Origin: a virus | Lineage: Duplodnaviria; Heunggongvirae; Uroviricota; Caudoviricetes | IMG/VR virus record: IMGVR_UViG_2534682252_000039 | Length of the DNA: 61,732 nt | Reading direction: 5' to 3' (one strand) | In this document: piece after piece, positions 4,381 to 21,350 of the stretch | Layout: each line of letters starts with the position of its first letter | Numbering within the stretch: position 1 is the stretch's first letter | Position numbers and translations under genes: made by a program | Notes under the pieces: generated by a model | Seen by the model: the letters and a program-made list of their open reading frames with translations, nothing else | Databases searched by the model: none | Told to the model about the DNA's origin: nothing

Positions 4381-5115
4381 ATGAAGAGTATAGCAACACT
4401 GGTTGTGTGTGCAATCTCCGGGATTGCCTGTGTAAATTTATCTGCACATGCAGCAGAAGGAGAGCATACAATTTCTCTGGGGTATGCGCACTTTCAGTTT
4501 CCGGGACTGAAGGATTTTGTAAAGGATGCGACTGCTCATAACAGGGAGACTTTCAGTCATTTCGTCAACAGAAACTACTTTTCTTCATTGGGCGAATATA
4601 CAGATGGTCGGGTCAGTGGATATGAAGGCAAGGATAAAAATCCACAGGGCATTAATATCAGGTATCGCTACGAGATAACGGATGATTTTGGCGTTATCAC
4701 CTCTTTTACATGGACGCGTTCTCTCACTAACTCACAGACATTTATTGATGTGCAGTCAGCCGATCATACCAGGAAGATTAAGAATCCGGCAGCTTCTGCC
4801 AGAACGGATATCAGGGCGAATTACTGGAGTCTGTTAGCGGGGCCTTCATGGCGGGTTAATCAGTACATGAGTTTATATGCGATGGCAGGGATGGGCGTTG
4901 CTAAAGTTAGCGCTGACCTGAAAATTAAGGACAATATTAACAGTAGTGGCGGATTTTCTGAAAGCAACAGCACGAAAAAAACCTCCCTTGCGTGGGCTGC
5001 AGGTGCACAGTTTAACCTGAATGAGAGTGTTACACTGGATGTGGCTTACGAAGGTTCCGGCTCTGGCGACTGGCGCACGAGTGGCGTTACTGCTGGCATT
5101 GGCCTGAAATTCTGA
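4381..5115 (+). CDS. lom: Ail/Lom-family outer membrane beta-barrel protein
   Basis: Signal peptide MKSIATLVVCAISGIACVNLSAHA, aromatic-rich beta-strand pattern, C-terminal GLKF; position after tail genes. Confidence 0.85.
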   Translation: MKSIATLVVCAISGIACVNLSAHAAEGEHTISLGYAHFQFPGLKDFVKDATAHNRETFSHFVNRNYFSSLGEYTDGRVSGYEGKDKNPQGINIRYRYEITDDFGVITSFTWTRSLTNSQTFIDVQSADHTRKIKNPAASARTDIRANYWSLLAGPSWRVNQYMSLYAMAGMGVAKVSADLKIKDNINSSGGFSESNSTKKTSLAWAAGAQFNLNESVTLDVAYEGSGSGDWRTSGVTAGIGLKF

Positions 5116-5137
5116 CCTGTATCCGGTAACCGTTTAC

Positions 5138-5165
5138 TACCCGCTGTGATGGCGGGTTTTTTATT
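5138..5165 (+). terminator. Rho-independent terminator after lom
   Basis: CCCGCtgtgatgGCGGG followed by TTTTTT. Confidence 0.6.
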
Positions 5166-5347
5166 GCCCGTACAGGGCAAAAACCGTAAATTATGCGTGG
5201 GTGCCTTTCGGCTGATGGCTGGAGGGTGAACCTGAAGGCCTGATGTGGAAAGGCCCCGAGTCAACTTAACGTTAACCCGAGGCCCTAACACTTCGTACCT
5301 TAAGCAAGTAGAAGGTTAGCGCCTCTCTGTAAAAGGAGTCAAGCGCT

Positions 5348-5488
5348 ATGTCGCAAAAATCGCTTATCACCGTCACAATTTGCATGACGGTTATCTTCAC
5401 CATCTGGATGTTGCACGGTTCACTGTGTGAGTTCCGGCTGAATTTGTGGGGAGCGGAGTTTGCGGCGTTCTTACAGTGTAAGCAGTAG
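5348..5488 (+). CDS. Hok/Gef-family type I toxin-like small membrane protein (46 aa), absent from the ORF track
   Basis: Hand translation MSQKSLITVTICMTVIFTIWMLHGSLCEFRLNLWGAEFAAFLQCKQ; AAGGAG RBS; resembles HokA as remembered (TWMIRDSLCE...ELAAFLACK). Confidence 0.5.
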   Translation: MSQKSLITVTICMTVIFTIWMLHGSLCEFRLNLWGAEFAAFLQCKQ

Positions 5489-5544
5489 GAAAACCGCGAC
5501 GGGGACGAGAGTCCCCGTCAACTGGTTGCTGAGGTTCAGCCGAT

Positions 5545-5946
5545 ATGGCACCCGTTTCAGGTGAGAGAATGAACGATAAAATTCTCTGGTATATGCAGCG
5601 TGTTGTGAGAAATTCCCGCAACCCTGAATTTATGAATGAAGTTAAAGACGCCTGCCTTAAAAAGCAGGCGTTTTGTTTTGAGGCACCTGATGGCTTTTTG
5701 GTGCTGCGTTCTGTGCTCAGTGCTGATGGTATCCCTTATGTTCTGGTGTTGCTGGGCGTGTGTACGGGGAGTAACAGCGTTGAGCGTTACCTGCCGGAGG
5801 TGAAGACATTAACCCATCTGGCTGGCGGACGCTGGGCTGAGTTCCATACGGCAAGGCGGGGATTTATCCGGCTGGGAAAACGACTGGGCTTTGAGCGAAT
5901 GCCGGATGATGAGGATGGCTTCATGGTGTTCAGGATAGCGGTCTGA
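5545..5946 (+). CDS. Hypothetical protein (start possibly internal at MNDKILWY)
   Basis: ORF track only. Confidence 0.35.
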   Translation: MAPVSGERMNDKILWYMQRVVRNSRNPEFMNEVKDACLKKQAFCFEAPDGFLVLRSVLSADGIPYVLVLLGVCTGSNSVERYLPEVKTLTHLAGGRWAEFHTARRGFIRLGKRLGFERMPDDEDGFMVFRIAV

Positions 5947-18028: not shown

Positions 18029-18147
18029 TCATAGTCCTCTTTCAGAGATGAACATTCAAACAGCATTTTCAGTATGGTAAAGCGCGGGTGCGTTGAGGAT
18101 GCCTGACACATCAGAGGTGGCGGGAGATTACTCCCCCGCTTGGTCTC

Positions 18148-18303
18148 TTACTTCTCAGATTCGTAGTCTACGAAGACAGCGACCTCCGTCTGACCGGTTC
18201 GGATTCGCACCTCGCAGAGGTCTTTCCTCGTTACCAGTGCCGTCACTATGACGGTTAAACAGATGACGATCAGGGCGATTAACATCGCCTTTTGCTGCTT
18301 CAT
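18148..18303 (-). CDS. hok: Hok/Gef-family type I toxin (HokD/RelF-like), with overlapping mok-like frame upstream
   Basis: MKQQKAMLIALIVICLTVIVTALVTRKDLCEVRIRTGQTEVAVF...; track ORF extends to 18360 in the mok-like frame. Confidence 0.85.
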   Translation of the reverse strand: MKQQKAMLIALIVICLTVIVTALVTRKDLCEVRIRTGQTEVAVFVDYESEK

Positions 18304-18593
18304 AGCCTGCTTCTCCTTGCCTTTCGGCACGTAAGAGGCTAACCTACATGTGTTCAGCATGGATTGAGCCTCAGATTAATGTTAAGCGTCTTGCCGGACG
18401 CGTAATGTTAACTGGGGCTTTTCTCTATCTGCCGTTGGTGTTCATGCCCGAGGCAGATAGCCTCAAGCACCCGCAGCAATTCTACTTAACTCTCCTTTTC
18501 CCGCAAACCGTTTTTATCTCCAGCGACAAATCGAATACACAACCAGCACCACCGCCATTACTGTTCCTACATTTGCGAATGCTTCAGGCCAGG

Positions 18594-21080: not shown

Positions 21081-21103
21081 AACCGCCAGTTAGTAGCTGG
21101 CGG
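21081..21103. repeat. Inverted repeat ACCGCCAG-N7-CTGGCGGT upstream of the antA-like gene
   Basis: Seen in sequence. Confidence 0.3.
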
Positions 21104-21350
21104 TCGGGTGTCAACTGAGCCAAATAAGAAGCTCTGGGCATATTCCCCTTGCGGGTGTTGTATTACGCCTCTCCACCCGACCTTTGTACGGATGTAACTA
21201 TGCCAAATTGCAGGCATAAAAAAGCCGCAAAGCTATCGGGTGCGGAGACCGCTTATTTGTTCAGTGCGGTCAGTATGCGATAGCTCTGGAGGATTTGTCA
21301 ATCAGCGGAATATTGATGAACGGGTAACGGTAAATGCCTCATCCAGAAAA

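Follow-up and report, generated by a model that had tools for sequence, protein, structure and literature searches.

The stretch of DNA analysed here, called the window in the following, comprises the 61,732 nt of IMG/VR virus record IMGVR_UViG_2534682252_000039. It belongs to a Shiga toxin (Stx) phage of the 933W/Sp5 type and carries lom, a short hok locus directly behind it (the post-lom hok locus) and the hokW/sokW pair. The post-lom hok region is 100% identical in 933W, VT2-Sakai (Sp5), Stx2-converting phage I and many O157:H7 chromosomes, and 99% identical in phi24B. The segment 5164–5553 very probably constitutes a self-contained type I toxin-antitoxin (TA) cassette of the hok/Sok type, a moron of the Stx phage, and its antisense gene coincides with a published small RNA of phi24B, 24B_1.

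The toxin gene and its cassette

The toxin gene lies among the following features; ORF stands for open reading frame, CDS for coding sequence and aa for amino acids.

4381–5115, upstream of the hok ORF: lom (Pfam Ail_Lom, 113 bits)
5139–5157, plus strand: intrinsic terminator of lom, from a terminator scan
5164–5192, plus strand: predicted hok promoter, with -35 TTGCCC (5164–5169), a 17-nt spacer and -10 TAAATT (5187–5192), 6 nt before GGGTGCC
5199–5553, plus strand: conserved module, equal to the predicted full-length hok mRNA of ~355 nt, from blastn boundaries, alignments and the start of the RF01794 match
5348–5488, plus strand: hok CDS (ATG 5348, stop TAG 5486–5488) for the 46-aa peptide MSQKSLITVTICMTVIFTIWMLHGSLCEFRLNLWGAEFAAFLQCKQ (Pfam HOK_GEF; RefSeq WP_000078907.1; catalogue id 72_1589)

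A preliminary description of this DNA had placed a 46-aa ORF with an AAGGAG ribosome binding site behind lom at 5348–5488, and sequence and translation are exactly so; the Shine-Dalgarno (SD) sequence AAGGAG is at 5333–5338, 9 nt ahead of the ATG. It had further assigned the product to the Hok/Gef family, which is borne out by a Pfam search: the HOK_GEF profile (PF01848) matches with 33.2 bits against a curated gathering cutoff of 22 (E = 4e-8), peptide residues 8–44 aligning with profile positions 6–42 of 42. A local Hok hidden Markov model found exactly two matches among the 1,175 stop-to-stop ORFs of the window, the post-lom ORF and hokW (18151–18303, minus strand). In the text of a bioRxiv preprint cataloguing Hok proteins (Escalera-Maurer et al., v2 January 2026) the Hok/Gef motif is described as ~50 aa with an N-terminal hydrophobic helix, (S/D)LCE and a C-terminal periplasmic tail containing a second Cys or Tyr. 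The post-lom peptide agrees with this in size, in its hydrophobic stretch LITVTICMTVIFTIWML, in the SLCE that follows (C27, E28) and in a second Cys near the C-terminus (C44). It is a Hok/Gef protein. A protein search returned 56 clusters, almost all of exactly 46 aa and present only in Escherichia, Shigella and Salmonella. For all comparisons within the family, including the covariation analysis below, 23 unique copies of the locus were used. The ORF is intact in all 23; among their 18 protein variants M1, Q3, K4, C27, E28 and AAFLQCK (38–44) are invariant, and codon position 2 varies least, the pattern typically expected from coding selection.

The toxin gene is not new, since it has already been annotated, catalogued and assayed, and the gene itself is ordinary. 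That it was said to be missing from the ORF track fits the original GenBank records of 933W and phi24B, which carry no annotation between lom and L0129/vb_24B_43; in RefSeq/PGAP it is present as WP_000078907.1 ('Hok/Gef family protein'), and a Pharokka-style record labels it 'MokW-like host killing'. According to the text of the Hok catalogue, the identical peptide is 72_1589 of cluster 72, a cluster classed as high-abundance, and its clone, LRP157, was made for a toxicity assay with arabinose induction, which also included the P2-type variant 72_1621 and HokW (35_712). Overexpression, suggested in the preliminary description as a check, had thus been carried out by others: by the preprint's text, 42 of 45 catalogue sequences were toxic, the only non-toxic ones being 19_179, 60_1482 and 69_1540, and LRP157 is not among these three. 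The same text reports two Hok copies in only 3.5% of Hok-carrying phages, places Sok, Mok and mRNA structure outside the authors' analysis, and cites neither 24B_1 nor hokW. No information on the post-lom ORF was found in the Pas small RNA (sRNA) preprint, Owen 2020, the E. coli W genome paper, the Hücker 2017 RIBOseq supplements or Neuhaus 2017.

By blastn, module DNA occurs in about 1,750 of 5,426 complete E. coli genomes, and the alignments repeatedly span query positions 5–359, that is, window 5199–5553. Homology starts at 5199 and ends at 5553 with fixed, sharp edges. The module follows lom in 933W-like Stx phages; in E. coli and Salmonella it is found after ogr at the end of P2-like prophages, adjoining serS, tRNA genes, flk or pheT; further contexts are a lambda-like prophage, where it lies between gpJ and a tail-fibre gene, and an island next to the type-B L31 gene. 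In Salmonella it also occurs as three tandem copies, 498 bp apart. An alignment of 12 copies gave a conservation of 83% for the untranslated leader, higher than the 79% of the CDS, and of 37% for the flanks. Judged by these contexts, the cassette moves between unrelated prophage backbones.

At the upstream edge, the T-tract of the lom terminator adjoins the -35 of the hok promoter (5158–5169). P2-type copies have the same hok promoter behind unrelated upstream sequence, which puts the cassette boundary at about the -35. The tandem triplicate is seen in two Salmonella enterica sequences (L143, positions 358–1712, and L144), directly after ogr at the P2-like prophage end, with three different Hok variants. 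In Salmonella enterica subsp. diarizonae (L142) an Ibs-family type I toxin gene at 1881–1940 lies ~240 bp downstream of the hok module, so that two type I toxins stand side by side, with no recognisable prophage around them. A 17-mer pattern was also scanned against 596 Gb of contigs: among the 120 matches listed, 117 were chance, and the module was present only in L027, L058 and L132. An 857-bp contig labelled Xanthomonas pisi (L027) and one labelled Vagococcus sp. (L132) hold an enterobacterial hok module at 82–91% identity; both are most likely contaminated or mislabelled public-assembly contigs.

Leader, antisense RNA and mRNA fold

The RNA elements of the locus are given below (UTR, untranslated region; MFE, minimum free energy); helix numbers are those of the consensus structure.

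5199–5215, plus strand: tac-like 5' element (GGGUGCC UU UCGGCUGA), pairing with 5536–5553 in the MFE fold
5245–5306, minus strand: predicted Sok-like RNA of ~60 nt, with a single-stranded 5' tail beginning UGCUUAAGG, a 16-bp hairpin and then UUUCC
5245–5319, plus strand: 24-codon leader ORF (GTG 5245, TAG 5317–5319), ending 14 nt before the hok SD; not conserved
5299–5305, plus strand: leader segment CUUAAGC, complementary to the antisense 5' tail and paired with 3'UTR GCUGAGG (5528–5534) in the full-length mRNA (helix 6)
5313–5342, minus strand: antisense (Sok-like) promoter, identical to the published p24B_1, with -35 TTGACT (5342–5337), an 18-nt spacer and -10 TAACCT (5318–5313)
5318–5347, plus strand: SD-enclosing hairpin, AGCGC (5318–5322) with GCGCU (5343–5347) and SD AAGGAG opposite CUCU (helix 7)
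5460–5468, plus strand: dcb-like element UUGCGGCGU within the CDS, pairing with the start-codon region AUGUCGCAA (5348–5356; helix 8)
5498–5519, plus strand: GC-rich 3'UTR hairpin (5498–5506 with 5511–5519; helix 14), with compensatory changes at five of nine pairs
5536–5553, plus strand: fbi-like 3' element (UCAGCCGA UAU GGCACCC), pairing with the tac-like element and overlapping the L0129 start at 5545

Both promoters were identified by regular expressions together with conservation among the copies. Exactly 6 nt upstream of GGGTGC, a -10-like hexamer is present in 23 out of 23 copies. The antisense -35 overlaps the hok SD, and the same arrangement, with a -10 of TAACCT or TATCCT, is likewise found in every copy. 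A generic promoter scan listed nothing within 5000–5700. For the hok promoter this is explained by its 8 of 12 matching positions (manual count), which is below the scan threshold of 9; the antisense promoter was not listed either, despite an 18-nt spacer within the range of the scan.

The RNAalifold consensus consists of 77 pairs. Over the 23 copies, 97.5% of cells are paired compared with 35–40% when the partners are slid, 18 pairs have double-sided changes (a number reached in 0 of 500 shuffles), and 88 compensated cells are observed where 29.9 are expected. The two ends of the mRNA are joined in the MFE fold by 5199–5205 with 5547–5553 and 5208–5215 with 5536–5543, and in the consensus by the first of these helices and 5208–5211 with 5540–5543. 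All four pairs of the latter covary, with 5–9 double-sided changes each. Furthermore, the best partner of the first 22 nt is always the 3' edge of the homology (-23.5 to -35.9 kcal/mol, 23 of 23 copies). GGGTGC at the start and GCACCC 350–385 nt further on are common to the two hok loci of the window, and in both the MFE fold joins the 5' to the 3' end. Helix 6 has 8 double-sided changes at one pair. In helix 8, by contrast, all nine pairs are formed in 100% of cells, with pairs invariant or changed on one side and no double-sided support; its pairing of the start-codon region with UUGCGGCGU accounts for the invariant AAFLQC codons. The Rfam hok-leader/sok model RF01794 matches 5199–5361 over its full length (35.6 bits, window-wide E = 2.3e-4).

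By analogy with hok/sok of plasmid R1, the 3'UTR hairpin is presumed to stop 3' exonucleolytic processing. When the model mRNA is trimmed to 5519, the unpaired probability of the target of the antisense tail rises from 0.22 to 0.57, an increase seen in all copies, and in the window copy CCUUAAGCA comes to lie in a hairpin loop.

On the opposite strand, a short cis-antisense RNA is predicted, with its own promoter in the leader, a single-stranded 5' tail and a terminator hairpin; the length of the transcript would be ~57–63 nt. In every one of the 23 copies its hairpin folds more stably as antisense than as sense RNA (-19.6 vs -12.4 kcal/mol), because C-A mismatches of the sense strand become G-U pairs in the antisense RNA. 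The pattern of these changes points to selection of the hairpin on the antisense strand. Expression is supported by published 20-nt reads of antisense polarity (PMC4426718). This Sok-like RNA is the putative antitoxin of hok.

Downstream, a homologue of L0129/vb_24B_43 (133 aa, 5545–5946, plus strand) begins at an annotated ATG, 5545, that overlaps the fbi-like element; its protein is without a Pfam match. Within this annotated ORF, at 5648–5671, is a strong bidirectional terminator-like hairpin (ACGCCTGC...GCAGGCGT followed by a T-run).

Overlap with 24B_1

In phi24B, a 20-nt RNA of 'microRNA size', 24B_1 (TAACGTTAAGTTGACTCGGG), was described between lom and vb_24B_43 by Nejman-Falenczyk et al. 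2015 (PMC4426718), from 2,223 identical 20-nt reads in a sample taken 80 min after mitomycin C. The authors predicted a promoter p24B_1 (-35 TTGACT, -10 CGCTAACCT) and a hairpin precursor of ~80 nt. In the window this RNA has one exact match:

5255–5274, minus strand (5274–5255): 24B_1, covering the loop and 3' arm of the Sok-like hairpin

The promoter p24B_1 is the antisense promoter of the post-lom hok (5342–5313, minus strand). By primer mapping, the published amplicon of the reverse transcription PCR (RT-PCR) for the precursor corresponds to 5304–5224 (minus strand), within the hok leader, and the Sok-like RNA forms the core of the 80/81-nt precursor. Thus, the 24B_1 precursor appears to be the Sok-like cis-antisense RNA of hok; 24B_1 itself would be a stable remnant of the terminator hairpin of this RNA. 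Only the window-type copy has the 20-mer unchanged; five copies differ from it by 1–2 edits and 17 of 23 by more than 4, while the hairpin is kept in all. Loss of the 20-mer with retention of the hairpin argues that the conserved function of this region would be structural, that of an antitoxin terminator or stability hairpin, and not that of a sequence-specific seed.

The published constructs can be placed on the same map. The 189-nt deletion of 24B_1 equals window 5148–5336. With it go the hok promoter, the entire leader and the antisense gene including its -10, and also half of the lom terminator and four bases of the six-base SD. The insert of pUC18_24B_1, as given by the primers of 2015, is 5036–5601 (566 bp) and so reaches from the last part of lom across the complete hok module into the following ORF; the 2023 follow-up describes the plasmid as bearing 'the 189-nt region' (PMC10732415). 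The deletion mutant shows poorer lysogenisation, faster induction and a higher phage yield, and the multicopy plasmid gives more survivors and lower ATP; the follow-up reports lower ATP in plasmid-bearing or lysogenic cells. It also reports that Hfq binds the precursor with a Kd of about 25 nM (PMC10732415), in agreement with the partial Hfq dependence of sokW. These data have been read as the work of a trans-acting regulator of d_ant and sdhB (PMC4426718, PMC10732415). The terms 'hok' and 'toxin-antitoxin' are absent from the 2015 paper (PMC4426718) and from a 2025 review, and 'hok' is absent from the 2023 paper (PMC10732415); a mini-review of 2017 by the same group put Sok and 24B_1 into separate classes. 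In the literature searched, no paper joining 24B_1 to hok was found. New in this analysis are the link to 24B_1, the covariation-backed anatomy of the RNA, the spread of the cassette and the lack of a conserved mok.

Relatives, regulation and significance

The closest comparison is available within the same phage.

18086–18472, minus strand: hokW/sokW (Rfam sok model 113.5 bits at 18298–18472; 51-aa ORF 18148–18303; primers of PMC8621323 match at 18.1–18.5 kb)

The preliminary description had expected two type I toxin loci in this prophage from a hokD-like gene at 18148–18303 (minus strand). That gene is real and is the characterised hokW/sokW, for which experiments in Sakai prophage 5 established a TA pair and an acceleration of phage release (Takada et al. 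2021, PMC8621323). A second hok is not mentioned in that paper. The two loci share their layout, the GGGUGC 5' end and GCACCC 3' end, an antisense -35 overlapping the hok RBS (ribosome binding site) and an identical antisense -10, TAACCT, the hexamer mutated by Takada et al.; both peptides (35_712 and 72_1589) appear in the assay described in the catalogue text. They differ in that the proteins are only 33% identical, the antisense RNAs have unrelated 5' tails, and hokW has an in-frame mokW extension and reaches 113.5 bits on the sok model. Moreover, hokW/sokW is a demonstrated TA pair, whereas the post-lom locus is a predicted one and is still present in the strains that Takada et al. deleted for hokW-sokW. 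RNAduplex gave -49 to -60 kcal/mol for non-cognate and -128 to -151 kcal/mol for cognate combinations of the two phage antisense RNAs, values that say little on cross-talk, given the homology of the loci and the long interrupted duplexes permitted by the method.

Two observations concern the surroundings of hokW. An in-frame ATG (context tCCATGCTGAAC; 18303–18360, minus strand) lies ~57 nt upstream of the hokW ATG and would give a MokW of ~70 aa; the 5' end of sokW is complementary to this upstream ATG region, in contrast to the mok-less post-lom locus. About 2.8 kb from hokW/sokW, at 21094–21182 (minus strand), there is a full-length match to the Rfam family sRNA-Xcc1 (RF02221, 69.1 bits vs a gathering threshold of 53); a copy in EDL933 is listed with very high transcription and almost no ribosome coverage (Neuhaus 2017).

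With hok/sok (parB) of plasmid R1 the post-lom locus has in common a Hok/Gef toxin, an mRNA of ~350–400 nt closed by tac and fbi, a sequestered translation start, a 3'UTR hairpin upstream of fbi, a full-length RF01794 match, and a cis-antisense RNA of ~60 nt with single-stranded 5' tail, terminator hairpin and a promoter inside the leader. In contrast to R1, protein identity is 30%, the peptide has 46 instead of 52 aa, hok has a canonical SD of its own, a conserved mok is lacking, the Rfam score is below gathering, and the locus is borne by a phage and not by a plasmid. The peptide had been called 'HokA-like', which is approximately correct. HokA is the nearest K-12 paralogue and shares the MxQK start, SLCE, the AAFL.CK C-terminus and two hard-coded cysteines, so that no TadA recoding is needed; however, identity is 46%, the post-lom peptide is four residues shorter, and by the catalogue text the two fall into different 60%-identity clusters (93 for HokA, 72 for the post-lom peptide). 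By cluster, the post-lom peptide is outside the HokA subgroup. Blastn of the module against E. coli genomes did not have K-12 hokA among its matches, i.e. no similarity was detected at the DNA level.

If the locus works like R1 and hokW/sokW, a weak promoter would supply a stable hok mRNA of ~355 nt, which with its ends paired would be neither translated nor bound by antisense RNA. Slow 3' trimming to the hairpin at 5498–5519 would remove fbi and the 3'UTR decoy and expose CCUUAAGCA in a loop. There, by the same analogy, an abundant but unstable Sok-like RNA would pair through its 5' tail, and the duplex would be destroyed, probably by RNase III. Once the supply of antisense RNA fails, Hok would be made and inserted into the inner membrane, membrane potential and ATP would collapse, and the cell would be killed or lysed. 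For the phage, such a system is likely, on the model of reports for hokW/sokW, to serve prophage retention and/or the tuning of lysis and induction timing.

Several points weigh against this account. The RT-PCR amplicon is inside the hok leader, and as its strand-specificity is not evident from the methods text, hok mRNA may have been co-detected. The RT-PCR showed no product at time 0 and gave one only 80 min after mitomycin C, and it is the 80-min sample that yielded the reads of 24B_1 (PMC4426718); this is unexpected for a classical antitoxin, whose presence would be expected before induction of the lysogen, and is the opposite of what sokW does. Toxicity of the peptide is taken from the text of a preprint. 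In the covariation analysis the structure was derived from the alignment used for counting and the sequences are related, both of which inflate the controls, and several consensus helices are invariant and hence uninformative. RF01794 stays below its gathering threshold at this locus (35.6 vs 59 bits). In the lom context there is no intrinsic terminator after fbi, the next such hairpin being that at 5648–5671 inside the L0129 ORF; in P2 and Salmonella copies such a hairpin, with its T-run, stands 20–35 nt past fbi. Finally, we had expected 3' trimming to open SD and AUG, but the accessibility model contradicts this: they stay closed in the trimmed mRNA (0.20 to 0.25), so that the model does not account for the activation step.

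The activation step bears on the role of mok. The ~180 bp upstream of the ORF had been proposed to hold an antisense RNA and a mok-like leader. The ~150 nt in front of the ORF form a conserved leader of the hok type, and the antisense RNA has stood up well, with promoter and hairpin in 23 of 23 copies and published strand-specific small-RNA reads, but no mok frame is conserved across these copies, and an in-frame TAA at 5330 blocks an N-terminal extension of hok. The mok candidates tried were this in-frame extension, an ATG+45/GTG+47 ORF and a 3-codon GUG ORF, none of which is conserved. In R1, translation of mok is mandatory, and it is needed only up to the hok SD (PMC9841398). One could therefore take the leader ORF at 5245–5319 for a short mok in a canonical, mok-dependent locus, in which ribosomes terminating 14 nt before the SD would melt the SD hairpin and the antisense RNA would block the ORF. 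An SD-like GAAGG lies upstream of this ORF, its start is inside the antisense-covered region, its stop adjoins the helix at 5318–5322, and a comparable ORF, or one continuing past the hok start, is found in eight of the 23 copies. Yet the frames differ between copies, and the remaining 15 lack such an ORF, including one with an identical Hok and 92% DNA identity (L013) and most Salmonella copies, where AUG/GUG is replaced; hok, moreover, has its own strong AAGGAG at good spacing. We thus regard a mok-dependent locus as rather doubtful, and the leader ORF as a possible facultative substitute for mok. Probably hok translation at the post-lom locus is not coupled to a mok frame, unlike in R1. As no mok is conserved here while it is mandatory in R1, the cluster-72 subfamily either departs from the R1 paradigm or couples in some copies only.

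A different explanation is the published one, that the antisense transcript is mainly the precursor of a microRNA-like, trans-acting 24B_1, whose repression of d_ant and sdhB would favour lysogeny and reduce ATP, the hok ORF being incidental. The 2,223 identical reads speak for it, as do the deletion and plasmid phenotypes and the pairing of mature 24B_1 with the sdhB 5'UTR in vitro, together with changes in ATP, fumarate and NAD+ (PMC10732415); it is also compatible with an antitoxin role, which it need not exclude. However, the deletion (5148–5336) removes hok control elements, and the plasmid (5036–5601 by its primers) carries the entire toxin module, so that the phenotypes do not isolate 24B_1. 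The 20-mer is gone from 17 of 23 copies whereas compensatory changes keep the hairpin in all, most copies sit on another phage backbone, that of P2-like prophages, and a perfectly complementary target exists in cis. A loss of ATP, too, would be expected from a leaky Hok toxin. We therefore consider the microRNA explanation, taken as the main function of the transcript, unlikely. Still far less probable is an inactive relic, comparable to several hok loci of K-12, with a translatable ORF, decayed regulation and no function for the phage. Such a state would agree with the sub-threshold score on the sok model, the absence of a recognisable mok and the report that chromosomal hokA, hokB and hokC are unable to mediate post-segregational killing. 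It is at odds with an ORF intact in 23 of 23 copies and 18 protein variants with a coding-type codon pattern, with helices maintained by covariation and two conserved promoters, with the spread of the module between phage types and its tandem triplicates, and with an antisense transcript that has been detected (PMC4426718) and a peptide reported as toxic in the preprint text.

With the hok/Sok-type cassette as the preferred reading, there are two independent Hok systems in Stx2 phages of the 933W/Sp5/phi24B type. It follows that a second Hok was present when the published phenotypes of hokW/sokW deletion, in lysis timing and a two-fold change of phage yield, were determined. Since the 24B_1 deletion removes the hok promoter, the leader and the antisense gene, and the plasmid carries an intact module, a decade of work on effects of 24B_1 on lysogeny, induction and ATP may need re-attribution. 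The chances appear to us evenly balanced that removal or multiplication of an unrecognised Hok TA module, and not a trans-acting microRNA, accounts for all or part of these phenotypes, and that cluster 72 is in addition a mok-independent variant of hok/sok, travelling between Stx phages and P2-like prophages as a cassette of ~390 bp. Such a re-attribution bears on the control of Shiga-toxin prophage induction, and the reinterpretation is directly testable. For the Hok family, the cluster-72 subfamily would offer a natural example of how hok can be regulated when no mok is conserved and could help to define what is essential in the R1 paradigm.

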